NCBI GenBank assembly: GCA_028688375.1
Contig: JAQTYG010000001.1
Coordinates: forward strand, 7,793 to 71,792
Direction: 5' to 3'
DNA from: Patescibacteria group bacterium
GTDB taxonomy: Bacteria > Patescibacteriota > Patescibacteriia > Magasanikbacterales > GWA2-37-8
DNA: 64,000 nt
In this document: in pieces, positions 19,113 through 61,199 of the stretch
How positions within the stretch are numbered: the stretch's first letter is position 1
Layout: each line of letters begins with the position of its first letter
Made by a program: the position numbers and the translations under genes
The notes under the pieces: generated by a model
Told to the model about the DNA's origin: nothing
The model's input: the letters and a program-made list of their open reading frames with translations, nothing else
Databases searched by the model: none

Positions 19113-19137
19113 GATTCCCGCTTTCGCGGGAATGACA
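19113..19137 (-). repeat. GTCATTCCCG...GGGAATC palindromic repeat (family copy) in the mraZ 5' UTR
   Basis: The reverse complement reads TGTCATTCCCGCGAAAGCGGGAATC, matching repeats at 10 or more other loci. Confidence 0.7.
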
Positions 19138-19146
19138 AAAACGACC

Positions 19147-19578
19147 ATGTTCATAGGCGAATATTCCCACAATCTAGATGATAAAGGGCGTTTGGCTGTT
19201 CCGGTCAAATTTCGGCCTGATTTGGAGGATGGAGCGGTTGTAACCAGAGGTTTGGACAGCTGTCTTTTTCTTTATACAAAAAAAGAGTGGGCCAAGTTGG
19301 CGGAAAAATTAGCGGCTCTGCCCATTAGCCAATCCAACAGCCGGGCCTTCGCCCGTTTGATGCTGGCCGGCGCCATGGACGTGGATATGGACAAGCAGGG
19401 TCGGGTGGTGGTGCCGGAATACTTGCGTCAATTCGCCGGCATGAAAAAGAATGTGGTGGTGGCGGGCTTGTATAATCGTTTAGAACTTTGGGACGAAGAG
19501 AGCTGGGAAAAATATAAAAATCAAACTGAGGCTGAAAGTGGCGAAATCGCCGAACGCATGGCGGAACTGGGAGTTTAA
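19147..19578 (+). CDS. mraZ: transcriptional regulator MraZ
   Basis: MFIGEYSHNLDDKGRLAVP, and a second SpoVT-AbrB repeat. Confidence 0.8.
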   Translation: MFIGEYSHNLDDKGRLAVPVKFRPDLEDGAVVTRGLDSCLFLYTKKEWAKLAEKLAALPISQSNSRAFARLMLAGAMDVDMDKQGRVVVPEYLRQFAGMKKNVVVAGLYNRLELWDEESWEKYKNQTEAESGEIAERMAELGV

Positions 19579-19582
19579 AATT

Positions 19583-20503
19583 ATGAAACACATTCCGGTA
19601 TTAATGGCTGAAGTGATTGAGGGGCTAAATTTGGAATCAAACACCAACGTGATTGATTGTACCCTGGGCGATGCTGGACACGCGGAGATAATTTTGGAGA
19701 AAATTGGTCCGAAAGGTCAATTGCTCGGGATCGATGCCGATCCGGAATCACTTTTACGGGCTAAAAGAAATTTGTATAAATTCGGCGAGCGAGTGATTTA
19801 CGCCAGAGATAATTTTGTCAATTTAACCAAGATTGTTTCGGCCAACAAATTCACACCGGTCAGCGCCGTTCTGATGGATCTGGGCTGGTCCACTCCGCAG
19901 TTTGCCGAGCGGGGCCGGGGATTCAGCTTTGAACCGCCGGCTGGCGGAGACGAGCCGTTGGACATGAGGTACGACCCGAATGACCGACAAAACGATTTGC
20001 CGACGGCCGCTGATATATTAAATAAATCCAGCGAAGCGGAATTGGCCAAGATTTTTAAAAATTACGGCGAGGAAAAATTCAGCCGAGACATCGCCGAAGA
20101 GATCTGCCGGGTCAGAAAAACGCGACCGCTAGAGCAAACGAAAGAATTGGTGGAGATAATTTTGTCAGTTTATCGAACTAAATTAAATAGCAAAAAAGAT
20201 GTGCCCTGGATCGGCGGGATTCATCCGGCGACCAAGGTGTTCCAGGCCCTGCGCCTGGCTGTCAATCGAGAGCTCGAGGTATTAAAACAAGCATTGCCTC
20301 AAGCTCTGGACGCGCTGACGGCTGGCGGACGGCTGGCGGTGATCACCTTCCATTCGTTGGAAGATAGAATCGTCAAGCAATATTTTCAATCGTCGGGCAA
20401 TGTAAAAATTATCAACAAAAAACCGCTGGTCGCTTCCGCGGAAGAAATCGCGGCCAATCCGCGCTCTCGCAGCGCTAAATTGCGGGTCGTAGAAAAAATA
20501 TAG
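19583..20503 (+). CDS. rsmH: 16S rRNA (cytosine1402-N4)-methyltransferase RsmH
   Basis: HIPVLMAEV...DCTLG...MDLGWS motifs typical of MraW/RsmH. Confidence 0.85.
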   Translation: MKHIPVLMAEVIEGLNLESNTNVIDCTLGDAGHAEIILEKIGPKGQLLGIDADPESLLRAKRNLYKFGERVIYARDNFVNLTKIVSANKFTPVSAVLMDLGWSTPQFAERGRGFSFEPPAGGDEPLDMRYDPNDRQNDLPTAADILNKSSEAELAKIFKNYGEEKFSRDIAEEICRVRKTRPLEQTKELVEIILSVYRTKLNSKKDVPWIGGIHPATKVFQALRLAVNRELEVLKQALPQALDALTAGGRLAVITFHSLEDRIVKQYFQSSGNVKIINKKPLVASAEEIAANPRSRSAKLRVVEKI

Positions 20504-20510
20504 CGCCAAT

Positions 20511-20882
20511 ATGTCTTGGAAAAGGAGAGTAAAATATCAGTTTGATTATTACCGCCGCCGGGCGCTGGGTGTTTTTGGCTATGCCGCTTTGCCGGATTAT
20601 TTTACCGGTCGAACGGCCAGAATTGTTTATATTACGATATTAGTGGCAACCAGTTTAATCTATATTTGCCAGACCAGTTTAGCCGCCGGTTCCGGCTACG
20701 AGATGCGTGATTTGCAAAATAAGGTCAATACTTTGCAAGAAGACATTCAAAAAATTGAAGTGGAAATCGCGGAAAATACTTCCATGGCCAAATTGGAAAC
20801 CCGGTTGGCCGAACTGAATATGGTGGCGATCTCGGACATTAAATACATTAGTGCCGTGGAAACCGCCGTAGCGAAGAAATAG
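20511..20882 (+). CDS. ftsL: FtsL-like cell division protein
   Basis: Single TM helix plus coiled coil, at the canonical position after rsmH. Confidence 0.55.
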   Translation: MSWKRRVKYQFDYYRRRALGVFGYAALPDYFTGRTARIVYITILVATSLIYICQTSLAAGSGYEMRDLQNKVNTLQEDIQKIEVEIAENTSMAKLETRLAELNMVAISDIKYISAVETAVAKK

Positions 20883-20890
20883 CGCGGTCA

Positions 20891-20951
20891 GTTCTCAGTT
20901 CACAGTTCGTAGTTCACAGCCTGCCTGTCGGTAGGCAGGGTAGGCAGGTCC
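20891..20951. repeat. short GTTCACAGTTCG repeat followed by a CCTGCCTGTCGGTAGGCAGG hairpin-family copy
   Basis: GTTCACAGTTCGTAGTTCACAGCC resembles 13189-13220. The GC hairpin resembles 26828-26847, 50412-50431 and 59529-59545. Confidence 0.6.
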
Positions 20952-20965
20952 ACAGTATTAAGAGT

Positions 20966-20988
20966 CCCGCTCGTGCGGGTTTTTTTAT
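20966..20988 (+). terminator. rho-independent terminator
   Basis: CCCGCTCGTGCGGG followed by TTTTTTT. Confidence 0.65.
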
Positions 20989-21076
20989 TTTATGATATAA
21001 TAAAAACAAAGAAACAATAACCAAGAAACAATAACCAAAACCAAAAACGGCCGGCAATCACCCTGTTTCTTGTATC

Positions 21077-21466
21077 TTGGTTATTGGAATTTGTCACCCT
21101 ATGTTTATCCTGGTTTTACAACGCGTGTTAGTCGGAGCAGTGCTGGATATTTTTTATTTTCCTCTTTGGTGGTATACCGTCGGCGCAAAACACGCCCTGC
21201 TTTGGTGCGTGGGACTTTTAGCCTACGGCAACGACAATTTCGCCCCCGGCCTGTGGCTGAAAAATATTTTTGTGCCCATGTACGGGCAGTATGATTTTCA
21301 AGGCAGGATCATCAGTTTTTTGATGCGTTTGGCGCAAATTATCGGCCGTTCGGTTGCTTTGGCGGTTTGGCTGGTTCTCTGTTTGATTTTATTTTTTATT
21401 TGGCTTTTAATCCCGGTAGTGATTGTTTGGGGATTGACGCGCGCTTTAAGCGTACCTAAAATATGA
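21077..21466 (+). CDS. hypothetical integral membrane protein
   Basis: Four hydrophobic helices. ATGA overlap with the downstream gene. Confidence 0.4.
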   Translation: MVIGICHPMFILVLQRVLVGAVLDIFYFPLWWYTVGAKHALLWCVGLLAYGNDNFAPGLWLKNIFVPMYGQYDFQGRIISFLMRLAQIIGRSVALAVWLVLCLILFFIWLLIPVVIVWGLTRALSVPKI

Positions 21467-24240: not shown

Positions 24241-24247
24241 TGAGAAT

Positions 24248-24601: not shown

Positions 24602-24602
24602 T

Positions 24603-25718: not shown

Positions 25719-25721
25719 ATT

Positions 25722-26726: not shown

Positions 26727-26735
26727 ATTTCGTTT

Positions 26736-26913
26736 TGAAAATTCCAAATCCCAATGACCAATGACCAAATAAATCGCGTGAAAATCCCAAATTATAATTT
26801 AACGATTTTGTCCGCCCGAAGCGGATCCCTGCCTGCCGGCAGGCAGGCGCCTTTGGTGGAAAAATTAGAGTCTAGAATTTATTTGGGTTTTGGGGTTTGG
26901 AAATTGGGATTTA
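26736..26913. repeat. inverted-repeat MITE-like element copy 1, carrying a nested GC-hairpin insert
   Basis: Arms TTCCAAATCCCAATGACCAATGACCAAATAAAT and ATTTATTTGGGTTTTGGGGTTTGGAAATTGGGATTT. About 85% identical to 54509-54633. Nested TGTCCGCCCGAAGCGGATCCC plus CCTGCCTGCCGGCAGGCAGG at 26809-26847. Confidence 0.65.
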
Positions 26914-26980
26914 AAAACTCGGCCAAAGATCGACAAAATTAAAATTATTAAAATTCGTTTTTTGATCAGTTTATTTACTT

Positions 26981-28022: not shown

Positions 28023-29264
28023 ATGAACATCGAAACCACGAGAATGCGTTTGCTCCGCAGGCAGTCCGACTGCTGGGAGCGGATTGAGAAGAATCTCCAT
28101 TCCCTGAACCACGGTTCTCTTATCGCCCTGGACAACGATTTTCCTTGCGGTTTTTCCCGCCAGGAAGCGATAGAAACCGGCACCTGCGCCGTTGCCGCTA
28201 TCATGGACCGCCTTTCTCGTGCCGGCATGTTTTTCAACGAAGGCGACCCGGGGCACGGCCGTGGACATCTCATTCGGGATTACGTCGAGGCCGTTTGGCT
28301 CTTCAGCGCCTTGGACGCCCGTCCGGCCGACATTCTGATCGGTCTGGTCGCCGGCGCCTTGCACGACATCGGCTGTTTCCTGATACCGCGCTATGCCGAG
28401 GAAAAGCGATCGGTCAGGCACGCCGAAGCCTCGGCCCTGATCCTGGAAGAAGTCTTTTCCGAGTGCAACTGCGGTCTCACCCGGTCTGAACAGATGATGA
28501 TCGAGTACGCCATCTGCGCTCACACCCACTATCTGAAGCCGGCCGAGATCAAATTTGGCAACGGTCGGAAACGATTTATCGCGCCGTACCTGGACACAAG
28601 GCTCAACGGCGAACCGTACTGGTGGGTCTGGTACACGCGCTGGGTGGACCGCTTGGACACCAATGGCCCCAGCTTTGCCGCTCGTCATTACCTGACGATC
28701 GGCAAGCCGCACCTGGACTTCGATGGTGAGGATCACTTCGCCGTTGGCTACGCCCAGCACATGCGGCCGCTCCTGCGTTCCCGAGAGGAGCGGGGCAATG
28801 ATCCGCAGACGATGCTCGAGCATCTCGCCATGTTCGCCGCGACCGACGAGAATTCGCCATATGGCAAACACGACCGCAGAGAATTCATTACTCTGCGCGA
28901 CGGGCAGAGAAATCGCTCGAAACGAATCGTCGAGGCAGTCGAGAACGCGGGCATGACCAGGATCCCCGAGGCCGATGTCCTCTGCGCCTGGAACGATTTT
29001 CTCTCATTTCAGATAGAACATCCCGAGATCGCCGTCCCGGTTGTAAAGCAACTCTTTGAACAGTTTTCCAACCTGCCGCCCGATGTTCGGCACGCCTGGA
29101 CAGCCGGATTCCTGGCGATCATGGATGAATACCTCGACTGGTATCGGGTAGGGCAGAAGGATTTCGGCCATTTGCCCCATGCGTGGTTCAACCTTCCACA
29201 CTTTGGAGACGCTCTCGCCTTTATCCAACCCCACGGTCTCTGGCTGGACATCGTCCGGCCATAG
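28023..29264 (+). CDS. HD-domain phosphohydrolase with ~200-aa uncharacterised C-terminal domain (paralog 1, GC-shifted)
   Basis: HGRGH...GALHDIGC HD motifs. AGGAGAG RBS. Composition and codon use depart from neighbours. Confidence 0.6.
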   Translation: MNIETTRMRLLRRQSDCWERIEKNLHSLNHGSLIALDNDFPCGFSRQEAIETGTCAVAAIMDRLSRAGMFFNEGDPGHGRGHLIRDYVEAVWLFSALDARPADILIGLVAGALHDIGCFLIPRYAEEKRSVRHAEASALILEEVFSECNCGLTRSEQMMIEYAICAHTHYLKPAEIKFGNGRKRFIAPYLDTRLNGEPYWWVWYTRWVDRLDTNGPSFAARHYLTIGKPHLDFDGEDHFAVGYAQHMRPLLRSREERGNDPQTMLEHLAMFAATDENSPYGKHDRREFITLRDGQRNRSKRIVEAVENAGMTRIPEADVLCAWNDFLSFQIEHPEIAVPVVKQLFEQFSNLPPDVRHAWTAGFLAIMDEYLDWYRVGQKDFGHLPHAWFNLPHFGDALAFIQPHGLWLDIVRP

Positions 29265-29277: not shown

Positions 29278-29342
29278 TCTCGCCCGAAGTTTTCTCTTCG
29301 GGCCAATCCAAAAGCACCTCACGAAATGGGGTGTTTTTGCTT
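29278..29342 (+). repeat. 65-bp cassette flank (unit 1) with terminator hairpin
   Basis: Identical to 30647-30711. Contains GCCCGAAG...CTTCGGGC and a CACCTCACGAAATGGGGTG hairpin followed by TTTTTG. Confidence 0.8.
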
Positions 29343-29352
29343 GTTAGCGGTC

Positions 29353-29381
29353 TTGACAAAAGGTCAAATTTGTGCTACTCT
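29353..29381 (+). promoter_or_regulatory. promoter of HD paralog 2
   Basis: TTGACA, 17-nt spacer, extended-10 TGcTACTCT. Followed by GGGATACAAACAAAGGAGG. Confidence 0.45.
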
Positions 29382-29426
29382 ATCCTGTTCTCGCTAAGGG
29401 GCGGGATACAAACAAAGGAGGAGCAA

Positions 29427-30632
29427 ATGCTCTTTGACATAGTAAAAGAACGTCTGAAAAACGAAGAAGGTTGTTTAAATTACATCGAAAAGTTGCGCGT
29501 CACGAACGTCGGAGACTGTTTGAAAAAAATTAGTTTCTCTAATTCCGACACCGCTTTAGCCAAAGCGGCCGAAATCACGCGCTATATCCTCCGCGTCCTA
29601 ACCGATAACGGCTTCAACTTTCTGGATACCATGGACCCCTGTCACGGCGTCGGACATTTTGTCCGTAGCTATATCAACACTCGCCTGCTTCTGTCTCTTG
29701 ATCCCTTGGTTGAACCGGCCGATGTGTTTCTCACCTATATCAGTGCGGTGTTGCACGACGTTGGCCGCTGCTTTGTTCCGCCCGTTGGCGAAAACCGCCT
29801 GGCCGTACCACACTCTTGGGCTGGAGCTATCGTTATTGATGAGTTGTTCAAACTCGATGCATGCCACTTGTCGGCAGAGGCGCGGCAATTGGTGTCGTTC
29901 GCCATCGGCGGACACCAGTGGAGCGTAAAGCCGCGAGTTGTCTTAAGCGAAGGCGGCGCCACCCGTGTCATTGAATCTTTCCCGGTGGAAGATCCGCACG
30001 GCAAATTGTATAAGTTTTTTTGGCTAGTGCGGTGTGTCGACCGCTTGGACGGAAACGGTTCCACAATAATCGGGCGCGATTTCCTTCATGCCTACAACGA
30101 AATTGGCCGAGCGGATTTCGCCGAGTATCTCAGTGTATTTTTGGAACCGCATCCGCGCGAAAAAAATTTGCGAGTACCCGGGTCAGAGACTCTGATCGAG
30201 GGACTGTACAGGCTGGCGACGACTCAAAACAATAGCTCGCCGTATAGTCGGCATGACTTTGGGAACATGATTCATATCTGCCAAGTCCAAACTTGGCGGC
30301 TCCTGCTCGTCCTCAATGCCGTCCAGCATCCGGAGATAGCGACCCCTTCGTCAGTGAAGCGGACAATGTCTCGCCAGACCCGTGATTGGCTTACCCGCTC
30401 AATTGATCCGTCGAAAAACGGTCAAGTGGCGGCAAGGGTTATGCTCGACCACCTCGATGCGATGCCTGACCGGGTGCGTCTTGCCTGGTTGTCCGGTTTC
30501 AATCAAGCTCGTTGGCTGTATTCCGAGTGGAGCATCGAAGCGCGCCACTGCTTAGACCAGATTCCTCTTGACGATCTCTACCTCAGATTACGTCGAGGAA
30601 CCGAATACTGCGTTCTCGATATTCTTGCCTGA
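29427..30632 (+). CDS. HD-domain phosphohydrolase (paralog 2 of 28023-29264)
   Basis: CHGVGH...AVLHDVGRC. Shares WVDRLD, NSSPY.RHD and HPEIA blocks with paralog 1. Strong RBS AAAGGAGGAGCAAATG. Confidence 0.6.
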   Translation: MLFDIVKERLKNEEGCLNYIEKLRVTNVGDCLKKISFSNSDTALAKAAEITRYILRVLTDNGFNFLDTMDPCHGVGHFVRSYINTRLLLSLDPLVEPADVFLTYISAVLHDVGRCFVPPVGENRLAVPHSWAGAIVIDELFKLDACHLSAEARQLVSFAIGGHQWSVKPRVVLSEGGATRVIESFPVEDPHGKLYKFFWLVRCVDRLDGNGSTIIGRDFLHAYNEIGRADFAEYLSVFLEPHPREKNLRVPGSETLIEGLYRLATTQNNSSPYSRHDFGNMIHICQVQTWRLLLVLNAVQHPEIATPSSVKRTMSRQTRDWLTRSIDPSKNGQVAARVMLDHLDAMPDRVRLAWLSGFNQARWLYSEWSIEARHCLDQIPLDDLYLRLRRGTEYCVLDILA

Positions 30633-30646: not shown

Positions 30647-30711
30647 TCTCGCCCGAAGTTTTCTCTTCGGGCCAATCCAAAAGCACCTCACGAAATGGGG
30701 TGTTTTTGCTT
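30647..30711 (+). repeat. 65-bp cassette flank (unit 2) with terminator hairpin
   Basis: 100% identical to 29278-29342. Confidence 0.8.
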
Positions 30712-31905: not shown

Positions 31906-31920
31906 TTTTTCTGTTCACGT

Positions 31921-32030
31921 GTCATTGCGAGGAGCCCCGCATTTACGGGGTGACGAAGCAATCCCAAGGAAAGCGAATGGATCTGTTAAAAAGGGGATTG
32001 CTTCACCGCCAGTTGGCGGTTCGCAAAGAC
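31921..32030. repeat. pair of GTCATTGCG...GCAATCC family repeats in opposite orientation
   Basis: GTCATTGCGAGGAGCCCCGCATTTACGGGGTGACGAAGCAATCCC and GGGATTGCTTCACCGCCAGTTGGCGGTTCGCAAAGAC. The second is near-identical to 51315-51351. Confidence 0.7.
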
Positions 32031-32053
32031 AAGGTGGGCGCTTAATACCGAGT

Positions 32054-49304: not shown

Positions 49305-50426
49305 ATGAAAATAATGTTATCCGGCGGAGGCACGCTCGGCTCGGTGACTCCGCTCTTGGCGCTGGCCGCGGCCTATCGTAAAAATAATCCCACGGCGGAA
49401 TTTGTTTGGGTCGGCACCAAGTCCGGCCCGGAAAAAGCCATTGTGGAACAAGCGGGTATCCGTTTTATCTCCATCACTTCCGGCAAACTGCGCCGGTATT
49501 TTTCGTTTAGAAACTTTACCGACCCGTTCAAAATTCTGTTCGCTTTTTTCCAGTCCCGGGCGTTATTAAAAAAAATCAAACCAGACCTGTTGGTTTCGGT
49601 CGGCGGATTTGTCAGCGTGCCCCTCCATCGCGCCGCTTATTTTTTGAAAATTCCCACCTGGGTGCACCAGCAGGACATTATTCCCGGGCTGGCCAATATT
49701 TTGATGGCCAAAGCGGCGGATAAAGTTACCACAGCGTCCGCCCTGAGCGTTCCATATTTCAAAAGCCCAGTGGAAATCATCGGAAATTTTTGCCGTGATT
49801 TGCAGTTTGACGATAGAGGATTGGCCAAATCCAAGTTTGGCATCACCGATAACGCGCCGGTCATTTTGGCCATGGGCGGCGGCACCGGAGCGGTGAGAGT
49901 CAATGAATTGGCGCTGGCGGCCCTGGCTTCACTGCCGGCCGATTGGCACGTGATTCATTTGGTCGGGCTGGAACGCGCCAAAGAAAAATACGAACAGACG
50001 GCCAAAACCAGAAAAAATTATTTGGTTTATCAATTTCTCGATAAAGAAATGGCCGCCGCTTACGCCGCGTCCGATTTAATTATCAGTCGGGCCGGCTTTG
50101 GCGCCATCACTGAATTGGCCGCGCTGGCCAAACCCTCAATTATTTTACCGATTCCCGAATCGCCACAAGAGGCCAATGCGAAATTTTTGGCTGACGCCCA
50201 AGCCGCCCTGGTGCTGGATGAAAGAAAAATTACCGGCCAAGAATTAGCTAAAATAGCGGTTGAGTTGGTGAATAATAATCAAAAAAAGCAGGAGTTGTCC
50301 GGCAATATCCACCGGGTCCTGCCCATTGTTTCCGGAGAAAAAAATTCCGAGATTATTTCTTTTCTTTGTCATTCCCGCCCCCGCTTTCGCGAGGATAAAC
50401 TCCGGCGGGAACCTGCCTGCCGGTAG
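49305..50426 (+). CDS. murG: MurG lipid II synthase (UDP-GlcNAc transferase); C-terminus reads into a repeat element
   Basis: GGGTLGSVTPLLALA N-terminal motif and GT28 C-domain. The last ~20 codons overlay the GTCATTCCCGCC repeat. Confidence 0.75.
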   Translation: MKIMLSGGGTLGSVTPLLALAAAYRKNNPTAEFVWVGTKSGPEKAIVEQAGIRFISITSGKLRRYFSFRNFTDPFKILFAFFQSRALLKKIKPDLLVSVGGFVSVPLHRAAYFLKIPTWVHQQDIIPGLANILMAKAADKVTTASALSVPYFKSPVEIIGNFCRDLQFDDRGLAKSKFGITDNAPVILAMGGGTGAVRVNELALAALASLPADWHVIHLVGLERAKEKYEQTAKTRKNYLVYQFLDKEMAAAYAASDLIISRAGFGAITELAALAKPSIILPIPESPQEANAKFLADAQAALVLDERKITGQELAKIAVELVNNNQKKQELSGNIHRVLPIVSGEKNSEIISFLCHSRPRFREDKLRREPACR

Positions 50427-51648
50427 GCAGGTCCATTATCCGTTTCGTAATTTTCACCCCCACAATCTTGTTTTTTAAGTTTTTAGCCGAACGGAAATAA
50501 ATCGGAATATATTCCGGCGTATAGCCGAACCACGGACCGCCACGGCGCGATTCAAATAACACCGATCGCGTTTGCCCGATAAATTTTTTCGCGAATTTTT
50601 CCGCCGTTGCGTCAGCTGTTTTAATCAGCCGGGCCACTCGCTCGGTTTTTGTTTTGTCGTGGACTGATGTCATCGCCGCCGCCGGCGTATTCGGCCGTCG
50701 GGAGTAGGGGAACACGTGAACTTTGGCAAAGCCGGCTTTTTTTACGAACGTCAGCGTCTCGCCGAATTCTTTTTCCGTTTCTCCGGGGAAGCCGGCGATA
50801 ATGTCGGTGGTGAAAGAAAAAAGCGGGTCGGCTTGGCGCAGTTTTTTAATGATCGACAAATATTTTTTTGTATCATAACCGCGGTTCATTCTTTTTAAAA
50901 CCGAATCCGAGCCGGATTGCAAAGACAAGTGCCAATGGGGCATCAGACGGTGATTGGTAAATTGGCCAATTAGTTTATTGGTAATGAGGCGCGGGTCCAG
51001 CGAGCCCAAACGCACGCGCTCGATTTTTGTCTCGGTTAGTATCGTCTTCAATAATTCGGCTAAATCGATTTTGCCATTCCGGTATTGGCAAATATTTACT
51101 CCGGTTAAAATAATTTCTTTAAAACCTTTTTTGGCCGCTTGTTTTATTTTCGCGATAATATTTTTTATCGGCACGCTGGTCGCGCGTCCGCGAAAAGAGG
51201 GGATAACGCAATAGGCGCAATTAAAATTACAGCCATCTTGAATTTTTATCATCGCGCGGGTTCTAGTCATGTCATCGCGAGGAGCCCGCGAAGCGGACGA
51301 CGTGGCGATCCCATGGGATTGCTTCACCGCCAGCTGGCGGTTCGCAATGACAGTTACTCGTTTCAAAATATCACCCGCCGTCAGCGCCACATAATCAATC
51401 TCCGGCAAATCCCGATTCTCCAAACATCCGCCGGCAATCACATACGCGCCGAGTTTTTTTGCCCGTCGGATCGCTTCGCGCGCGGCCTTGCTCGCGTTCA
51501 TTGTTACCGCGCAGGCGCGAATAAGGGCGACGTCAGTCTTCCCGCCAAACGGTACGCAAACATGCCCCAGCCGGCGGAGCTCCTCAACAATTTCATTTGT
51601 TTCCGCTTGGTTGAGTTTGCAACCGAGCGTAATAAACGATATGCGCAT
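50353..51648 (-). CDS. radical-SAM methylthiotransferase (MiaB/MtaB-like) with an in-frame repeat insertion in the interdomain linker
   Basis: MTTase N-domain ISFITLGCKLNQ, CxxxCxxC in IQDGCNFNCAYC, and a TRAM-like C-terminus. Codons translating TVIANRQLAVKQSHGIATSSASRAPRDD derive from the repeat pair 51271-51351. Confidence 0.7.
   Translation of the reverse strand: MRISFITLGCKLNQAETNEIVEELRRLGHVCVPFGGKTDVALIRACAVTMNASKAAREAIRRAKKLGAYVIAGGCLENRDLPEIDYVALTAGDILKRVTVIANRQLAVKQSHGIATSSASRAPRDDMTRTRAMIKIQDGCNFNCAYCVIPSFRGRATSVPIKNIIAKIKQAAKKGFKEIILTGVNICQYRNGKIDLAELLKTILTETKIERVRLGSLDPRLITNKLIGQFTNHRLMPHWHLSLQSGSDSVLKRMNRGYDTKKYLSIIKKLRQADPLFSFTTDIIAGFPGETEKEFGETLTFVKKAGFAKVHVFPYSRRPNTPAAAMTSVHDKTKTERVARLIKTADATAEKFAKKFIGQTRSVLFESRRGGPWFGYTPEYIPIYFRSAKNLKNKIVGVKITKRIMDLPTGRQVPAGVYPRESGGGNDKEKK
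50367..50431. repeat. composite repeat of GTCATTCCCGCC...GGCGGGAA plus CCTGCCTGCCGGTAGGCAGG hairpin
   Basis: Forms the overlapping 3' ends of convergent murG and the radical-SAM gene. Confidence 0.7.
51271..51351. repeat. head-to-head pair of GTCATCGCG...GCGATCCC and GGGATTGCTTC...GCAATGAC repeats inside a CDS
   Basis: Same family as 31921-32030. Lies within the ORF 50353-51648 without interrupting the frame. Confidence 0.75.
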
Positions 51649-51690: not shown

Positions 51691-51725
51691 TGTCATTCCG
51701 ACCGGAGCGGAGGAATCCCTTCGGC
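51691..51725. repeat. GTCATTCCGACC...GGAATCCCTTCGG family repeat
   Basis: TGTCATTCCGACCGGAGCGGAGGAATCCCTTCGGC; compare 56441 and 58057. Confidence 0.7.
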
Positions 51726-53099: not shown

Positions 53100-53125
53100 A
53101 ATAAAACCGCCGATGAGGCGGTATT
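53100..53125. terminator. bidirectional terminator hairpin
   Basis: CCGCCGATGAGGCGG flanked by A-run and T-run. Confidence 0.55.
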
Positions 53126-53147
53126 ATTTTGTGACCCGGCTGGGATT
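53124..53147. repeat. 24-bp direct repeat copy A of the tRNA-Lys 3' end
   Basis: TATTTTGTGACCCGGCTGGGATTC, identical to 53331-53354. Confidence 0.75.
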
Positions 53148-53337
53148 CTGCTTCGGCTCAAATTTTCTTCCGAAAATTTGGCCTAGCCACCGCCTTCCGC
53201 CCAAGGCGGACAGGCGCGGTAACGTCAGCGGAGTTTATCCGCCTCTGGCGGAGCGTCCGAATCCCAACGCGAGCAAAACTATTTGCTCGCTGCCAGGTCA
53301 AAAATAAAAACAGCCCCAAAGGGCAGTTTTTATTTTG

Positions 53338-53410
<73 letters not shown>

Positions 53411-53448
53411 CCTCACTCAGAAATTTTATACAAAATTTCTGAGTGAGG
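53411..53448. other. perfect 17-bp hairpin abutting the tRNA-Lys 5' end
   Basis: CCTCACTCAGAAATTTT-ATACA-AAATTTCTGAGTGAGG. Confidence 0.6.
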
Positions 53449-53483
53449 GGCCGGGCCCACACGCTTGCGTGTGAGGGGTTTGG

Positions 53484-53741
53484 TCATTTTTTTATACAAT
53501 TTTTTATTCGTTCTTTTAATTTCACTAACGCTTGCGCGTGTTTCTTTAATTGCCACTCTCTTTCTTTGGCATCATATTCCGACGCGTATGCTTCATAATA
53601 TATCAGATCAAAAGGTTTTTTGTGTTTAGTATATTCACTTTCTCCAGCGTTGTGTTCGGCAAATCGTTTGCGTAAATCTCCGGTATAACCAACGTAAGTG
53701 CTTTTGTCTACTTTGCTCTGTAGCACATAAACATAATACAT
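53484..53741 (-). CDS. GIY-YIG nuclease-domain small protein (UPF0213-like)
   Basis: YYVYVLQS...YVGYTGDLRKRFAEHN GIY-YIG motif. 85 aa. Confidence 0.65.
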   Translation of the reverse strand: MYYVYVLQSKVDKSTYVGYTGDLRKRFAEHNAGESEYTKHKKPFDLIYYEAYASEYDAKEREWQLKKHAQALVKLKERIKNCIKK

Positions 53742-53841
53742 AAGGATTTCAAGTGAGGGGCGGGCCTGTTCACAATAGACATTTCACTCCGCAAATGATA
53801 CACTATATTTGTAAAAAAATCAAGAGGAGGAACCAAAACAG

Positions 53842-54468
53842 GTGGATAAAACCGTAATTTTTAATGTATTCGCCCCTATGTTAGACAAAAAACATTTTTC
53901 CGCCATCCGCGCCATTTTGCTCAATTACGCCGAGAAAAGACGCGAGATTATCAAGTTAGCGGGGGACGCCCAACAACGCGCTAAAAAGGCCATTTTTGCC
54001 CTTCAGCGCGATGATAAACAGGGCGCCGAGGAGCAATTCCGGGAATCTCTGGCCCGACTGAAAGAGACCGGGGCAGTAGCCAGTTCCGACGAGCGTTTGA
54101 CCGGCGAGGGTTCTTATCGCGCCGCGCTGGAAGAGTACGTGGAAGCCATACTTTTCAACCAGTGTTTGTCCGGTGAAAAAATCGGCGCCATCGCCGACCT
54201 GAACATCGACCCCGACATTTACATCGGCGGTTTATGCGACGTACCCGGCGAGCTCTATCGCTACGCCATCAAATCAGCCACCGAGAAAAAATTTGACCGG
54301 GTCAAAGAATGTTACCAAATCGCCGAAGAAATCATCACCGAATTGGTGGATATGGATTTAACCGGCTACAACCGCCAAAAATTTGATCAAGCCAAACAGG
54401 CCCTGCAAAAATTAGAGCAGGTCGTGTACGAAGTGAGCATGAAAAGACAGAATTCAATAGATCAATAA
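53842..54468 (+). CDS. translin-family protein (GTG start)
   Basis: All-helical, with DIYIGGLCDVPGELYRYAI resembling the translin YLxGxADLTGELMRLAI motif. GTG start 11 nt after GAGGAGG. Confidence 0.45.
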   Translation: MDKTVIFNVFAPMLDKKHFSAIRAILLNYAEKRREIIKLAGDAQQRAKKAIFALQRDDKQGAEEQFRESLARLKETGAVASSDERLTGEGSYRAALEEYVEAILFNQCLSGEKIGAIADLNIDPDIYIGGLCDVPGELYRYAIKSATEKKFDRVKECYQIAEEIITELVDMDLTGYNRQKFDQAKQALQKLEQVVYEVSMKRQNSIDQ

Positions 54469-54508
54469 AATGGGAAAGCGAAAGATATTGTTTTTTAATA
54501 AATTTTTT

Positions 54509-54633
54509 AAAAATCCCAAATCCCAATATCCAATGACCAAATAAATCGCGTGAAAATTCTAAGCCACAATTTAATGATTTTGAAAATTAGAGTTTAGGAT
54601 TTATTTGGGTTTTGGGATTTGGAAATTGGAGTT
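54509..54633. repeat. inverted-repeat MITE-like element copy 2
   Basis: AAATCCCAAATCCCAATATCCAATGACCAAATAAATCGCGTGAAAAT...ATTTATTTGGGTTTTGGGATTTGGAAATTGG. Lacks the nested insert seen in copy 1. Confidence 0.65.
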
Positions 54634-54661
54634 TGACGAAATTGATTGTAAATTGCGAACT

Positions 54662-56438: not shown

Positions 56439-56440
56439 TT

Positions 56441-56494
56441 GTCATCCCGACCGAAGTGGAGGGATCCCTTCGGCGATAAATTATCGGGGATCCA
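56441..56494. repeat. GTCATCCCGACCGAAGTGGAGGGATCCCTTCGG family repeat
   Basis: Near-identical to 58057-58094. Confidence 0.7.
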
Positions 56495-56500
56495 TAAAAT

Positions 56501-56893
56501 ATGTCCGAAGATCACGGTTGGAAAAATTTTTTCTACTCTCGCTGGTTTTTAATCGGCGTGGTTGTCGCCACTGTTTTAGTCGGCTTTGCTTTTGTTAAAG
56601 CGTATTATCAGGATTATCAAGTCCGGCAGGAAATAGAGCGGTTGCAATACGACGCCTCGCAATTGGAAGCGAAAAAAATAGAATCAATGGAAATTCTTAA
56701 ATATGTGCAGTCCCGCGACTATGTGGAAGCCAAAGCGCGCACTGATTTCAACCTCGCCAAACCGGGCGAACAAGTGGCAGTGATCACCGGCGCCACCGGC
56801 GCGGCCACGGGTGGACAGGTAAAAAAGAAGGTGATAGAATTAGAACACATTTCCAATCCTGTAAAATGGTGGAGATTATTTACTAACAACTAA
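56501..56893 (+). CDS. FtsB/DivIC-like septum formation initiator
   Basis: Single TM segment followed by a coiled coil (EIERLQYDASQLEAKKIE). Confidence 0.5.
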   Translation: MSEDHGWKNFFYSRWFLIGVVVATVLVGFAFVKAYYQDYQVRQEIERLQYDASQLEAKKIESMEILKYVQSRDYVEAKARTDFNLAKPGEQVAVITGATGAATGGQVKKKVIELEHISNPVKWWRLFTNN

Positions 56894-56902
56894 TTTCAAA
56901 AT

Positions 56903-57922
56903 ATGGAGAACATCCCGGGACAAAACACGGCTCCGGTCGAGCCGCGACCAATCGCGCCGTCAGCCAAGACCAACCAGACCATGTTTCTTTGGGGCCTGCT
57001 CGGTTTCATCGTAGTCGTGGTGGTGGTGCTCGGCGGTATCGGCGCTTATCGCGTTTATGCCAAAGGCGCGACCGATAGTTTTACTTCTATCGTGGCCAAA
57101 GTGCTGCGCTTGCCGGCGCTTAAAGTTAACGGCGTGACGGTTTTGTATTCCACCTATGTTGACGACCTCAAAGCCATTACCACTTTGAGCGACTATGACA
57201 AGCAATCCGGCGGACCGACCGCGGCTTTGACCGATGAACAAAAATCCGACCAGGTGCTTTGGCGATTAGCCAACAATATTTTCTTGGATGATTTGGCGAA
57301 AAAAATGAATGTGACCGTGGCCGATGAAGACGTGGCCGCGCTCAAAACACAAATGCTCGCCCAGTTTAAGGGCGGTGAGGCCGAGGCCAATACCGAAGTA
57401 CTCAAGCGTTACGGCTGGACCTTGAAAGAATATGAAAACAAAGTGATGCGCCCGTTTGTTCTGCAAAGCAAGCTGGATGAAAAATTTACCACCGACAACA
57501 GTTTGCGCGAAGACATCCGCGCTAAAGCTCAAGACGTATTGAATCAAATTAAAGCCGGCGCCAATTTTGAAGACATGGCCAAGAAGTACGGCGAGGACGG
57601 CACGGCCGCCAAAGGCGGGGATTTGGGCACGTTCGGCAAGGGCGAAATGGTACCGCAGTTTGAAACCGCCGCTTTCGCTTTGAAAAAAGGGGAGACCAGC
57701 CAGGAATTGGTGGAGACCTCTTACGGTTACCACATTATTCGCGTGGATGATGTGCAAGGCGAGAAAGTGAGCGCGCACCACATTATTTTCCTCTTCCCGA
57801 GTTTGGAAAAGAGTTTGGACGCGGCGCTGAAATCCGCGCTTCAAGCGGATACAATCCGTTTGTATCCCAAGATTCACAACCCTTTTACCGAAGCGCTGAA
57901 TCCGACGACCGCCACGCAGTAG
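56903..57922 (+). CDS. PpiC-type (parvulin) peptidyl-prolyl isomerase, PrsA/SurA-like, membrane-anchored
   Basis: Rotamase domain FEDMAKKYGEDGTAAKGGDLGTFGKGEMVPQFE...YGYHII. Confidence 0.75.
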   Translation: MENIPGQNTAPVEPRPIAPSAKTNQTMFLWGLLGFIVVVVVVLGGIGAYRVYAKGATDSFTSIVAKVLRLPALKVNGVTVLYSTYVDDLKAITTLSDYDKQSGGPTAALTDEQKSDQVLWRLANNIFLDDLAKKMNVTVADEDVAALKTQMLAQFKGGEAEANTEVLKRYGWTLKEYENKVMRPFVLQSKLDEKFTTDNSLREDIRAKAQDVLNQIKAGANFEDMAKKYGEDGTAAKGGDLGTFGKGEMVPQFETAAFALKKGETSQELVETSYGYHIIRVDDVQGEKVSAHHIIFLFPSLEKSLDAALKSALQADTIRLYPKIHNPFTEALNPTTATQ

Positions 57923-57937
57923 AAAATAATTAAGCTT

Positions 57938-57968
57938 CAGAGACAGGCTTCGCCGCCTGTCTCTGTTA
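57938..57968 (+). terminator. terminator-like hairpin
   Basis: CAGAGACAGGC-TTCGCC-GCCTGTCTCTG. Confidence 0.45.
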
Positions 57969-57972
57969 AAAA

Positions 57973-58043
57973 GCGGGATTAGTACAGTGGTAGTATGCTT
58001 GCTTCCCAAGCAAGAGATGCGAGTTCGATTCTCGTATCCCGCT
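57973..58043 (+). tRNA. tRNA-Gly (anticodon CCC)
   Basis: GCGGGATTAGTACAGTGGTAGTATGCTTGCTTCCCAAGCAAG...GAGTTCGATTCTCGTATCCCGCT. Confidence 0.8.
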
Positions 58044-58056
58044 CACATCATTTTTG

Positions 58057-58094
58057 TCATCCCGACCGAAGTGGAGGGATCCCTCCGGCACCCA
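58057..58094. repeat. GTCATCCCGACCGAAGTGGAGGGATCCCTCCGGCACCC family repeat right after tRNA-Gly
   Basis: Shares the GGATCCCTCCGGCACCC tail with 60092-60110. Confidence 0.7.
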
Positions 58095-58107
58095 TCTTTT
58101 ACCAATT

Positions 58108-59493
58108 ATGTACAAATTTGCCAAGAAGAAAAAAACCAAAAAATACGCCGGCCGGCCGGTCAAAGAAGACGCCGGCCGTTTTAATAACCTCGTTATCAAC
58201 GACGAGTGGCGCGCCGTGTTAGACGCGCTGGAAAACAGCCCGGAAAATATTTTCGTCACCGGACGGGCCGGCACCGGCAAGTCCACTCTGCTGGATTATT
58301 GGCGCGCGCAAACCAAACAAAGCATCGTCGTCCTCGCGCCGACCGGCGTGGCCGCCCTCAACGTCCGCGGTCAAACCATTCATTCGTTTTTCAGTTTTCA
58401 CCCGGGCATTACGCCGAATGATATCCATCGCCGAGGCACCAAAGCCGGCGCGGAAAATATGTATAAAAAAATCGACGCCATTGTGATTGACGAGGTCTCC
58501 ATGGTCCGCGCCGACTTGCTTGATTGCGTGGACAAATTTATGCGCCTCAACGGACGGGAACGCGGACGGGCGTTCGGCGGCGCGCGCCTGGTCGTGTTCG
58601 GCGACATGTGCCAGCTCCCGCCGGTCATCACCAACACGGAGCACGAAGCATTTTTTTCTTTGTATCAAACACCGTATTTTTTCTCGGCCAATGTTTTTCG
58701 CACCCGCCAGCTGGTCGGTCCGTCCAATGATTTCGTTAAATTTGAACTGAACGAAGTCCACCGGCAGAAAGACGCCAATTTTATCCGCTTGCTCAACCGC
58801 GTGCGCGACAATGAAGTTACGGCCGAAGATTTGGCCGAGCTCAACCAACGCCACGACCAAAATTTTCAAATCAGCGACGACGACTTCCGCATTTATCTCA
58901 CGGCGACCAATCAGGCGGCGGCGGAAATAAACAGCGCGCGTCTCAGTCGTTTGCCCGGTCAAGCGCAAGCGTTCAAAGCCGAGGCCTACGGTCATTTTGA
59001 CGAACGCGTTCATCCGACCGACGAAATATTACAACTCAAAGTCGGCGCCCAGGTGATGCTGATAAACAATGACGCGGACAAGCGCTGGGTTAACGGCAGT
59101 ATCGGACGCGTGGTGGAATGTAAAAAAAATAATTACGGCCTGCCCAACGTAAAAGTGAAATTAGCCGATGGGGCAGTGGTGGAGGTGGAACAGCACACCT
59201 GGAAAGCGCACCGCTACCATTTTAACGTCTCGCAACAAAAAATTGAAGCCGAAGAAATCGGCGCCTTCACGCAACTGCCTCTCAAACTCGCTTGGGCGGT
59301 GACGATTCACAAAGCGCAAGGTAAAACTTTTGACCGCGTCGTGCTGGATGTCGGCCGAGGTATGTTCGCCTCCGGCCAATTGTACGTCGCCCTGTCGCGC
59401 TGTACTTCGCTCGAGGGCATTGTCCTCATCCAACCGCTTCTGCCCCGCGACGTCATCACCGACCCGGTCATCTCCGAATTCCTGCGAGGATAA
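58108..59493 (+). CDS. Pif1/RecD-family 5'-3' DNA helicase
   Basis: Walker A GRAGTGKSTLL, IVIDEVSM, and C-terminal TIHKAQGKTFDRV and LYVALSRC. Confidence 0.75.
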   Translation: MYKFAKKKKTKKYAGRPVKEDAGRFNNLVINDEWRAVLDALENSPENIFVTGRAGTGKSTLLDYWRAQTKQSIVVLAPTGVAALNVRGQTIHSFFSFHPGITPNDIHRRGTKAGAENMYKKIDAIVIDEVSMVRADLLDCVDKFMRLNGRERGRAFGGARLVVFGDMCQLPPVITNTEHEAFFSLYQTPYFFSANVFRTRQLVGPSNDFVKFELNEVHRQKDANFIRLLNRVRDNEVTAEDLAELNQRHDQNFQISDDDFRIYLTATNQAAAEINSARLSRLPGQAQAFKAEAYGHFDERVHPTDEILQLKVGAQVMLINNDADKRWVNGSIGRVVECKKNNYGLPNVKVKLADGAVVEVEQHTWKAHRYHFNVSQQKIEAEEIGAFTQLPLKLAWAVTIHKAQGKTFDRVVLDVGRGMFASGQLYVALSRCTSLEGIVLIQPLLPRDVITDPVISEFLRG

Positions 59494-59570
59494 TCTTAGC
59501 CCTCCCTCTCCTTACCAAGGAGAGCCCGCCTGCCGGCGAGGCAGGGGCTGGGATGAGGTCCGCCTTAAAA

Positions 59571-59606
59571 CAAAAACCCCCCGGCTTTCGCCGAAGGGTT
59601 TTTTGA
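59571..59606. terminator. bidirectional rho-independent terminator (Pif1 gene / csp)
   Basis: CCGGCTTTCGCCGG-type stem with a GAAA loop, flanked by A-runs and T-runs on both strands. Confidence 0.65.
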
Positions 59607-59616
59607 TGTCTAGATA

Positions 59617-59820
59617 TTAGACGCGCTTCACGTGGATAGCGCGCGGGCCTTTGTCCGATTGCTCGGTCTCAAAGGTCACGGCATCGCCTTCGCGTAATTC
59701 GTCGAAGGTAACGCCTTCAAGGGCGGTGGAGTGGAAGAAAAGATCCTTCCCGTCAGTAGCGCCTTCAGGGGCGATAAAGCCAAAACCCTTATCTGTCAAT
59801 CTTTGAATTTTTCCGTTCAT
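59617..59820 (-). CDS. cold-shock protein (CspA family)
   Basis: MNGKIQRLTDKGFGFI...FFH RNP1/RNP2 motifs. 68 aa starting from the internal ATG. Confidence 0.85.
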   Translation of the reverse strand: MNGKIQRLTDKGFGFIAPEGATDGKDLFFHSTALEGVTFDELREGDAVTFETEQSDKGPRAIHVKRV

Positions 59821-59906
59821 AGATGTGATAAGTGAATAAATCTGCAAAGTGGCCTCTGCAGAAATTCGACTAGTTTCTACGTGAGAAGCGTACTTTATAG
59901 ATGAAT

Positions 59907-59935
59907 AGTATAGCATAAAATGGGGATTTTGTCAA
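59907..59935 (-). promoter_or_regulatory. consensus sigma-70 promoter of csp with ~85-nt structured 5' UTR
   Basis: On the minus strand: TTGACA, 17-nt spacer, TATACT. The leader contains a TCTGCA...TGCAGA hairpin. Confidence 0.6.
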
Positions 59936-60010
59936 TAGGGTGCCCGAATCAAGAGCAAAAACAAGCTTTTTGACTATACACAGCTAAAAGCGGTATAATC
60001 TCTTTAGTTT

Positions 60011-60144
60011 CTCCCCCTCTTATAAAGAGGGGGACTAAGGGGGAGTCCTGTCATCCTCGTCACCTGTCATTCTGAACGGAGCGTAGCGCAGTGAAGAATC
60101 CCTCCGGCACCCGTCACCTGTCATTCCCGACCCGATCGGGAATC
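60011..60144. repeat. cluster of repeats: CCCCCTCTT-ATAA-AGAGGGGG hairpin plus two GTCATT family copies
   Basis: GTCATTCTGAACGGAGCGTAGCGCAGTGAAGAATCCC and GTCATTCCCGACCCGATCGGGAATCC. Confidence 0.65.
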
Positions 60145-60164
60145 CATCCCCATAATATTATTAT

Positions 60165-61151
60165 ATGCCCGAAACAAATAGAGATGTTGACCCGGAAATT
60201 CTCGCCCGAGTCCTGAGAGACCAGGCGGTGCGTAAAATAAGAGTAAAACCGCCCGCGCATTGGATCGGCCAAGAACCAAATTTCGGTCCGGAAACCAGAA
60301 AGCCCCCGGAATTTTATGGCGACCATCTGGCCGAAATGATGCGCCAAATAGCCGAGCAGATAAACAAAGACGTGCTGGCGGAATACGGCCTGGCGGATTT
60401 TTTGAATTCCGACAACTCGCTCAACATGAACGGCTATGCCGACGGTCCGCATACGGCGGAAAAAGTGCGGGCGGATGAAGCCAGCGTTTTTGCCTCGGAT
60501 TTGAATTTTTCCGGCGCGCGCAGTAAAGACACGCAGGAAGAATACGGCGTGAACACGCCGGAGGCAGTCGTCCCGCTTTATCGCGAACGAAAAAAATTAC
60601 AAAAAAATTACCAAATGGAAATGGCCGTCACCGCCTTGCTCCACAAAATTTTAGGCGGAGATTATTTGGTGGTGCGCGCCTCGGCGCTCGATGACTACAA
60701 TAACGGCGTGGATAACATTATTATCAACAAACAAACCGGCGAAGTGATCTGCGCTTTTGACGAAGTGCACGAGAGTGGGACTGGCGAACGCACTGAGAAG
60801 AAAAATCAAAAAATAAAAACGCTGGCTGTCCGAGGCGGGGCCAAAGTCCGTTACGGCATCAAAATGGAAAAAGGCAAGCTCCAACGCGCGTCAATGTCCA
60901 ACGTGCCGGTGTTTTATCTGGGCTTGAGCAGTAAAGAGCTGGAAAATTTACTTGATAACATGAATTTTGATTTGGACGGGGAAATCCAACCCAAGGAATA
61001 CGAAACCTTCGCCCAATTGGTCGCCTCGCTCAAAGAACAACTCGCTGTTTTGAATGGAATGAAAAACGTTCATTTCGCCGTGTTCAACAAATTAAAAACC
61101 TTCGGCGCTTTGCTGGATGACTTTGAGGCGAAGGGAAAGAATCCGGCGTAA
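60165..61151 (+). CDS. hypothetical protein (328 aa, no recognisable domain)
   Basis: Intact ORF flanked by repeats. Acidic and helical. Confidence 0.4.
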   Translation: MPETNRDVDPEILARVLRDQAVRKIRVKPPAHWIGQEPNFGPETRKPPEFYGDHLAEMMRQIAEQINKDVLAEYGLADFLNSDNSLNMNGYADGPHTAEKVRADEASVFASDLNFSGARSKDTQEEYGVNTPEAVVPLYRERKKLQKNYQMEMAVTALLHKILGGDYLVVRASALDDYNNGVDNIIINKQTGEVICAFDEVHESGTGERTEKKNQKIKTLAVRGGAKVRYGIKMEKGKLQRASMSNVPVFYLGLSSKELENLLDNMNFDLDGEIQPKEYETFAQLVASLKEQLAVLNGMKNVHFAVFNKLKTFGALLDDFEAKGKNPA

Positions 61152-61154
61152 ATT

Positions 61155-61199
61155 TGTCATTCCCACACCTCCTTGTCATTCCCGCGTAGGCGGGAATCC
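61155..61199. repeat. tandem TGTCATTCCC / TGTCATTCCCGCGTAGGCGGGAATCC family repeat
   Basis: Perfect CCCGC-GTAG-GCGGG hairpin core. Confidence 0.7.

Follow-up and report, generated by a model that had tools for sequence, protein, structure and literature searches.

Dispersed GTC-headed hairpins in a Magasanikbacterales genome: probable Ssn-related motifs in the Patescibacteria

The window analysed here, a stretch of 64,000 nucleotides from an uncultured Patescibacteria group bacterium (order Magasanikbacterales; assembly GCA_028688375.1, contig JAQTYG010000001.1, positions 7,793 to 71,792), carries a short hairpin repeat that recurs at gene ends, in 5' untranslated regions (UTRs) and next to a tRNA gene. 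This raises the question of which system the repeat belongs to and what it does to the genes around it. A first-pass annotation, made from the sequence alone, had described it as an abundant hairpin family reminiscent of repetitive extragenic palindromic (REP) elements. We propose instead, with a probability of roughly 70%, that the repeats are Ssn-related motifs (SRM) of the type represented by the Neisseria element NTS, and that the partner nuclease is encoded elsewhere in the genome.

An oriented hairpin with a co-varying stem

Both strands of the window were scanned for GTCAT plus three nucleotides, followed within 60 nt by the exact complement of the five stem bases and CC. This strict scan revealed 11 oriented hairpins of the form GTC-AT-NNN...N'N'N'-AT-CC, compared to 0.34 on average and never more than 3 in 200 dinucleotide-preserving shuffles, and the head alone (TGTCATYSC) occurred 13 times where 1.6 occurrences were expected. 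A chance origin of the repeats is excluded by these counts, and the claim of an abundant family holds; reading out the coordinates of the loci that had been listed for it retrieved the described repeat at each one. Eight strict copies are located on the plus strand (31921-31964, 51271-51311, 51692-51718, 56441-56467, 58056-58082, 60066-60101, 60120-60145 and 61175-61199) and two on the minus strand (19112-19136 and 51316-51351), while the eleventh match consists of an outer head at 61156 paired with the tail that is also used by the copy at 61175. Besides the strict copies there are three imperfect ones (31994-32030 on the minus strand, 50367-50412 and 26809-26829 on the plus strand) as well as head-only fragments at 60049 and 61156. 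Some copies are nearly identical to each other, as had been noted: 56441-56467 and 58056-58082 agree at 27 of 27 positions, and 31994-32030 and 51315-51351 at 35 of 37.

Each copy is an imperfect palindrome of the 20-50 nt class that can fold on one strand, and its closing stem is exact over 5-8 bp in 11 copies. The sequence of this stem varies by copy, namely ATTCC(CGC), ATTGC, ATCGC, ATCCC or ATTCT, each time accompanied by its exact complement. Constant in all strict copies are an unpaired GTC 5' of the palindrome, the AT with which the stem begins and an unpaired CC 3' of it. Five different stems with exact complements between fixed flanks indicate that pairing has been maintained through compensating changes. 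The interiors differ too widely in length to be captured by one covariance model. The design of head, hairpin and tail that was originally proposed is therefore borne out, whereas the supposed 'GGAATCC tail' is nothing but CC preceded by the bases that pair with the stem of the head, and the three inner stem bases of the supposed head motif are co-varying rather than fixed.

The distribution of the copies is uneven. Non-coding sequence makes up 10.7% of the window and contains 12 of the 14 (binomial p = 1.7e-10), the other two are situated inside the gene mtaB, and ten of 14 lie between 50 and 61 kb. Intrinsic terminators were ruled out as an identity, because no T run follows the hairpins in the 50-62 kb region and none of those copies is among the terminator-like sites. 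A search of the whole window with Rfam at gathering thresholds returned four tRNAs and nothing else.

Association with Ssn-type nuclease genes

The route to an identification was the resemblance of the ATTCCC-N8-GGGAAT copies to the Neisseria dRS3 repeat. About half of the dRS3 copies in Neisseria represent a longer, oriented element, NTS, with the consensus CGTCATTCCCGCGMAVGCGGGAATCYRG, and related motifs (SRM) in several phyla adjoin a small GIY-YIG gene, ssnA (Chenal et al. 2025, Nat Commun; PMC11893778). This article alone surfaced in a literature search with the hairpin strings. SsnA recognises the hairpin solely on single-stranded DNA, and its cut falls a few nucleotides upstream of the hairpin, with activity on neither duplex DNA nor RNA; single-strand-specific binding and cleavage upstream of the hairpin were demonstrated for four SsnA homologues (PMC11893778). 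Mutagenesis further revealed that the three nucleotides 5' of the palindrome are critical for cleavage and the C directly 3' of it for binding (PMC11893778). The constant GTC and C of the window repeats occupy exactly these positions, which supports their identity as NTS/SRM hairpins. Furthermore, agreement with the NTS consensus extends to 27 of 28 positions in the copy at 19110-19137 and to 25 of 28 in the copy at 61174-61201 (counted from the sequence), the remaining classes giving no match. The NTS-like copies also fold far better as DNA than their shuffles do, with z-scores from -3.3 to -5.0.

We then asked which hairpins accompany Ssn-type (cd10448-like) genes in other genomes. An Ssn consensus served purely as a tblastn probe against a plasmid collection that also contains gonococcal chromosomes. 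At the gonococcal chromosomal locus, the gene for a 94-aa SsnA orthologue has CCGTCATTCCCGCGCAGGCGGGAATCTAG, i.e. NTS copies, on both sides. In a Planktothrix plasmid, the Ssn-type gene is flanked by GTCATTCTGAGTGAAACGAAGAATCTC, by GTCATCCTGAATG...GAAGGATCTC and by tandem orphan heads, while a Photobacterium locus carries NTS-like copies and a Novosphingobium locus GTCGCCCCGTGCTTGACACGGGGC. An alignment of the gonococcal, Planktothrix, Photobacterium and Novosphingobium proteins was scanned against metagenome contigs and yielded 80 Ssn-type loci covering 262 kb.

These loci contain 230 GTCAT hairpins (0.88 per kb). At least one hairpin is present at 68 of the 80 loci, and at 46 of them hairpins stand on both sides of the gene within 200 nt. 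Upstream hairpins are mostly co-oriented with the Ssn-type gene (52 versus 28 opposed) and downstream hairpins mostly opposed to it (55 versus 27 co-oriented), so that the heads preferentially face away from the gene, in the manner of an insertion sequence. The stems belong to the classes ATTGC (62), ATTCT (55), ATCCT (42), ATTCC (25), ATCCC (18) and ATCGC (5), with ATGCT also occurring, and every stem class of the window is represented among them. The best matches between window copies and hairpins at Ssn-type loci are 33/37, 24/28 and 24/26, the first of these being between the copy at 60066 and a hairpin 68 nt upstream of one Ssn-type gene (locus L088). Tandem orphan heads and convergent pairs, which are both found in the window, likewise recur beside Ssn-type genes (L082, L089, L145 and L165).

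Two of the loci lead back to the Patescibacteria. At L162, the Ssn-type gene is flanked by GTCATCCCGACCG...GGAGGGATCC and GTCATTCCGACCG...GGAGGAATCC, which are window classes with the window's ATCC tail; the encoded protein has a 100% identical counterpart in Candidatus Magasanikbacteria and many relatives named Patescibacteria, Parcubacteria or Roizmanbacteria. The contig of L165 (222 kb) also encodes a protein (P0243) named Candidatus Magasanikbacteria. Here, inverted copies of GTCATTCCGAGCGAAGCCGAGGAATCC stand 9 nt upstream and 3 nt downstream of the Ssn-type gene, and within a few kb of this gene GTCATTCCCGCGAAAGCGGGAATCT, the core of the window copy at 19112-19136, is found, including a convergent pair. 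Patescibacteria, and Magasanikbacteria among them, thus possess Ssn-type genes with such hairpin flanks and are a new host for the known hairpin/Ssn system.

The window repeats share with the NTS/SRM system the oriented hairpin with a GTC head and C tail, the multicopy, intergenic and clustered occurrence, and stem classes that flank Ssn-type genes at the loci described above, those of Patescibacteria included. They differ from it in their host, an uncultured Patescibacteria known from a metagenome-assembled genome, in the presence of at least five stem classes within 64 kb, most of them with longer interiors outside the published pattern, and in the prominence of convergent pairs and of an in-frame intragenic pair; intragenic copies make up 2% of NTS in N. 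meningitidis (PMC11893778).

Several observations weigh against an assignment to Ssn. A tblastn search with five real Ssn-type proteins did not find an Ssn-type gene in the 64-kb window, and the hairpin density of the window (0.19 per kb) is about one fifth of that beside Ssn-type genes. The published degenerate SRM pattern (HGTCWYN(0-2)YYVSBRHN(0-5)WNVSBRGN(0-2)RNCYNB) matches the window once, at 19110-19137, compared to 0.23 matches expected, so that it fits about one in 14 copies. Designed for NTS-like stems, this pattern does not capture the ATTGC, ATTCT and ATYCC classes, all of which flank Ssn-type genes; the classes with longer interiors are nevertheless tied to Ssn solely through the association data presented here. 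The SsnA of N. meningitidis is inactive once the sequence of the palindrome is altered with its structure retained (PMC11893778), and five stem classes would accordingly need several enzymes or one that is more tolerant. Finally, with standard DNA parameters the predicted folds of several copies with the interior GACCGRAGYGGA are no more stable than those of their shuffles (z from -0.4 to +0.4). In many interiors, GA...GA adjoins the stem and loops are of the GNA or GNNA type, GCGAAGC being one example. Such GA...GA motifs and GNA/GNNA loops are unusually stable in DNA, which may account for the poor standard-parameter scores of some copies.

If the assignment is correct, a single DNA strand would fold such that a closing stem of 5-8 bp stands between unpaired GTC on its 5' side and unpaired C(C) on its 3' side. 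By analogy with SsnA, a nuclease would bind this hairpin on single-stranded DNA through the flanking C and, reading the GTC, cut a few nucleotides upstream. One or more Ssn-type genes would be expected in this genome outside the window, with the five stem classes being substrates either of a single enzyme of tolerant specificity or of several paralogues.

The system would thereby extend to the Candidate Phyla Radiation (CPR), symbionts with tiny genomes. In Neisseria it restricts incoming single-stranded DNA, and in meningococci it reduces transformation by NTS-bearing DNA (PMC11893778). At least one CPR lineage, the Saccharibacteria, is naturally competent (PMC10187176). The co-existence of several specificity classes in one genome bears on the number of enzyme-hairpin pairs and on programmable cutters of single-stranded DNA.

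Other candidate partners and roles

The window itself encodes one nuclease of the right superfamily and size, and it might be supposed that the hairpins are substrates or footprints of this protein, a member of a subfamily specific to Patescibacteria. The open reading frame (ORF) 53484-53741 on the minus strand, located beside tRNA-Lys, encodes a single-domain GIY-YIG protein of 85 aa (Pfam GIY-YIG, E = 3.5e-19); Ssn proteins are single-domain GIY-YIG nucleases of about 95 residues (PMC11893778). It is the sole such candidate in the window and lies in the densest part of the cluster, with six copies at most 5 kb away. Its catalytic core is present and is 36-44% identical to those of real Ssn-type proteins, and it shows 33% identity to gonococcal SsnA. 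The conserved C-terminal block of Ssn proteins (KKW.R.WK..LIE..NP.W.DL) is lacking, however, and the nearest solved relatives are UPF0213 proteins. Moreover, 80 loci with homologues of this ORF, mostly from Patescibacteria, contain 0.08 GTCAT hairpins per kb, less than a tenth of the density at Ssn-type loci, and just four of the 80 have two or more plausible copies once the stricter CC tail is required. These loci are flanked instead by an inverted repeat of their own, CCCC(C/T)CAC...GTG(A/G)GGGG, and adjoin tRNA, RNase P RNA or 16S rRNA sequence. Given the scarcity of hairpins, the different flanks and the missing C-terminal block, the ORF is probably not the partner nuclease, and we consider a footprint of this protein an unlikely explanation for the hairpins.

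The GIY-YIG ORF is of interest in its own right. At 53411-53790 and at the homologue loci (L001-L080) it resembles a mini-element bracketed by the inverted repeat, with CCCC(C/T)CAC(A)CC as the upstream arm and GGTGTGGGGG or GTGAGGGG as the downstream arm. The mini-element is located directly 5' of tRNAs, in the window tRNA-Lys (53337-53410), and the first ~11 nt of the tRNA are repeated upstream of it. Elsewhere it is found at the 5' end of RNase P RNA (L004, L044 and L053) and inside 16S rRNA (L052 and L067). A published account describes GIY-YIG ORFs within rRNA insertions in these bacteria and makes no mention of tRNA (PMC11270868). Next to the GIY-YIG/tRNA-Lys locus, 53842-54468 encodes a protein of the Translin family (Pfam E = 6e-19), which is uncommon in bacteria. 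Translin is a binder of single-stranded nucleic acids.

Equally improbable, in our view, is a function of the repeats mainly as RNA, in which the hairpins would stabilise or process transcripts at mRNA 3' ends and in 5' UTRs and the link to a DNA nuclease would be incidental. Copies are indeed found at gene 3' ends, in the 5' UTR of mraZ and in that of ORF 60165-61151, where a good promoter-like site (59970-59999) precedes the cluster at 60048-60145. Seven of eight single copies also share the strand of the genes next to them. This bias is weak (p = 0.07), and since the plus strand is G-rich throughout, it is equally well explained by exposure of the lagging-strand template. The lack of T tracts and of any Rfam match besides the tRNAs speaks against a role as RNA, as does the presence of both orientations in the pairs and of copies within a coding region. 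Furthermore, what is conserved is the unpaired GTC and C, on which SsnA depends when it acts on DNA, and an RNA of identical sequence is not bound by SsnA (PMC11893778).

The idea that the copies are REP elements spread by an IS200/IS605-like RAYT transposase, or miniature inverted-repeat transposable elements (MITEs) of an ordinary DDE transposon, would suit short intergenic palindromes in high copy number with inverted pairs like those of bacterial interspersed mosaic elements (BIMEs), but it is very improbable given that a Pfam scan of 57 ORFs in the window detected neither a Y1 nor a DDE transposase domain, that the head is GTC(AT) and not the REP-typical GTAG/CTAC, that the recurrent neighbour in other genomes is a GIY-YIG gene, and that the one pair of filled and empty sites described below shows no target-site duplication. 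The original description as a small dispersed hairpin repeat that reshapes intergenic regions and gene ends is hence retained, and its REP-like address is not. A formal likeness to the REP/BIME-RAYT system persists in that both involve short extragenic palindromes recognised as single-stranded hairpins, inverted pairs and a partner gene flanked by its own repeats; the enzyme there is a Y1 HUH protein instead of a GIY-YIG nuclease, the conserved head is a different one, and no RAYT was found in the window.

Effects on genes and traces of insertion

The hairpins assigned above to the Ssn system punctuate intergenic regions and 5' UTRs, lengthen ORF ends and, in MtaB, supply an in-frame linker. 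The gene mtaB (50353-51648, minus strand) encodes 431 aa, compared to 393-402 aa in relatives with 65% identity; the closest named relatives belong to Magasanikbacteria and other Patescibacteria. Within it, an ATCGC-stem copy on the plus strand (51271-51311) and an ATTGC-stem copy on the minus strand (51316-51351) form a pair of 81 nt (51271-51351) that is read in frame as 27 codons and supplies the complete linker that joins the UPF0004 domain to the radical-SAM domain (VIANRQLAVKQSH-GIATSSASRAPRDDM). As the solved MiaB/RimO structures are too distant to define the insertion, close homologues were used for this comparison. In six of nine close homologues the linker is short and free of repeats, while in three of nine other hairpin-derived peptides occupy it. 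The last 25 residues of MtaB, encoded by 50367-50436, are absent in all nine, which agrees with the initial suggestion that the repeats affect gene ends. The copy at this end (50367-50412, plus strand; fold z = -4.4) has a ATTCCCGCC stem with a nested interior and lies between the convergent genes murG and mtaB, both of whose ORFs extend into it. Its tail GGGAA|TCC is interrupted by a 20-nt palindrome at 50412-50431. For annotation, such repeats yield spurious ORF extensions (VIARS.., ..PRNDK and ..GIAS.. peptides) that merit masking.

In-frame palindromic repeats at tolerant surface or linker positions are also characteristic of the Rickettsia palindromic elements (RPE). These measure 100-150 bp (families RPE-1 to RPE-8) and are likened to the window repeats by the in-frame property alone. 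Rickettsia is among the SRM-rich genomes (PMC11893778), and a link between RPE and SRM hairpins is possible.

Traces of insertion are preserved at two kinds of site. A 130-nt palindromic element occurs twice in the window, uninterrupted at 54505-54634 and, at 26733-26912, with a 50-nt insert (~26811-26860) that includes the degenerate plus-strand copy GTCCGCCCGAAGCGGATCCC (26809-26829). At this one filled/empty pair, a target-site duplication was not seen. The element has 37-nt inverted arms made of heptamer-like units (CCAAATC, CCAATGA), and its insert comprises, besides the degenerate GTC hairpin, a CCTGCC palindrome and another 13 nt. This palindrome belongs to a second family, CCTGCCTG(N)CGG(N)AGGCAGG, of which the window has three copies (20920-20939, 26828-26847 and 50412-50431) compared to 0.05 expected. 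At locus L017, a 20-21-nt palindrome CCTGCC...GGCAGG sits in the loop of an otherwise perfect NTS-like hairpin (8473-8518 compared to 2775-2799). Being nested in or abutting GTCAT hairpins both in the window and at L017, the palindrome looks like an independently inserting 20-nt module. Small dispersed repeats of cyanobacteria, which are very small mobile repeats nested in hairpins, are palindromic modules of 20-27 nt that lie within other repeats. The nesting of CCTGCC...GGCAGG in GTCAT hairpins is loosely reminiscent of them. The filled and empty 130-nt elements and the nested palindromes are indirect evidence of insertion, as footprints that do not reveal its mechanism.

How the repeats would have spread can be pictured as follows. 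The ancestral unit may have been an Ssn gene between two hairpins with outward heads; the convergent pairs, which have inverted termini and mirror such a unit, would then be its gene-less miniatures, and single copies, orphan heads and nested copies would be products of further decay or propagation. Spread may have proceeded via single-stranded intermediates, as hinted at by insertion at loop apices and by the seven of eight single copies on the G-rich strand, the presumed lagging-strand template. It may tentatively be speculated that the hairpin-ssn-hairpin unit is a mobile element with the single-strand GIY-YIG nuclease in the role of a 'transposase', and that the pairs and single copies in the window are non-autonomous derivatives that enter transiently single-stranded DNA (loops, lagging-strand template) and can be domesticated as linkers. 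Mobility of this unit was put forward by Chenal et al. as a hypothesis only (PMC11893778). The outward hairpins, gene-less convergent pairs, nested insertions and MtaB linker provide concrete cases for this question, and mobility driven by a GIY-YIG enzyme would, if true, represent a new mechanistic class of prokaryotic transposon.

The remaining copies are situated as follows. The NTS-like copy TGTCATTCCCGCGAAAGCGGGAATCCAG (19110-19137, minus strand; DNA fold -9.0 kcal/mol, z = -5.0) lies in the 5' UTR of mraZ, identified by Pfam, with 10 nt from its end to the start codon (19147), as the reported mraZ association implied. Between a pgi-like gene and a GT2 glycosyltransferase gene, an ATTGC-stem copy (31921-31964, plus strand) and a (T)TTGC-stem copy with the head GTCTT (31994-32030, minus strand; fold z = -2.8) form the left and right halves of a convergent pair, which as a whole (31918-32034) folds with -29.2 kcal/mol (z = -5.7). 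The copy GTCATTCCGACCGGAGCGGAGGAATCC (51691-51725, plus strand), with the extended tail CTTCGGC, is found between the start of mtaB and the 3' end of a sigma-factor gene. At 56440-56494 (plus strand; fold z = -2.8), between a bPH-domain gene and ftsB/DivIC, GTCATCCCGACCGAAGTGGAGGGATCC is followed by a second tail, GGGGATCC; the copy at 58055-58094 (plus strand) shares the 27-nt core of 56441-56467 and is located upstream of a Pif1-like helicase gene, 12 nt after tRNA-Gly(ccc), so that the proximity to this tRNA is also confirmed. The plus-strand cluster at 60048-60145 comprises the orphan head CTGTCATCCTC, an ATTCT-stem copy (60066-60101) and a ATTCCCGA-stem copy (60120-60145), each with GTCACCT in front. 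Downstream of ORF 60165-61151, the orphan head TGTCATTCCCACACCTCC precedes the NTS-like copy GTCATTCCCGCGTAGGCGGGAATCC (61155-61199, plus strand; fold z = -4.5). This ORF (328 aa, no Pfam match) thus has hairpin clusters on both sides. The same hairpin-gene-hairpin layout marks Ssn-modulated exchange genes in Neisseria.

Based on the Pfam results for the 57 ORFs, the window is an ordinary chromosomal stretch without a transposase. Its genes include mraZ/rsmH, ftsW, murJ, murG, Mur ligases, dnaG, rpoD, lepA, recJ, a clpB-like gene, mtaB, glycosyltransferases and the Pif1-like helicase. Two of the encoded proteins have 100% identical NCBI entries from a 'Patescibacteria group bacterium' metagenome-assembled genome, on a contig of 281 kb.

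Three further repeated sequences were observed. A conserved sequence of ~140-150 nt, in minus-strand sense, follows tRNA-Pro(cgg) (37750-37886) and tRNA-Lys (53149-53300), with the shared blocks GCGAGCAAATAGTTTTGCTCGC and AGGCGGTGGCTAG.CC.AA..CGGAAG. The tRNA 3' ends are duplicated (37677-37749/37887-37959 and 53095-53148/53301-53354), each copy of the sequence ending with the second tRNA 3' end and a terminator-like hairpin. Rfam scans by E-value near these two tRNA loci gave no credible match; the sequence could be a remnant of a tRNA-integrating element or a small RNA gene. A 65-nt sequence with two small hairpins inside occurs with 100% identity at 29278-29342 and 30647-30711, after two adjacent genes for proteins of ~420 aa (28023-29264, with an HD-domain match, and 29331-30632, without a Pfam match), and is probably a terminator region duplicated together with the preceding gene in a tandem duplication. 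A direct repeat of 171 nt (44485-44655 and 45731-45901, 72% identity) was rejected as a repeat element, as it reflects two adjacent paralogous genes for MacB/FtsX-type permeases.

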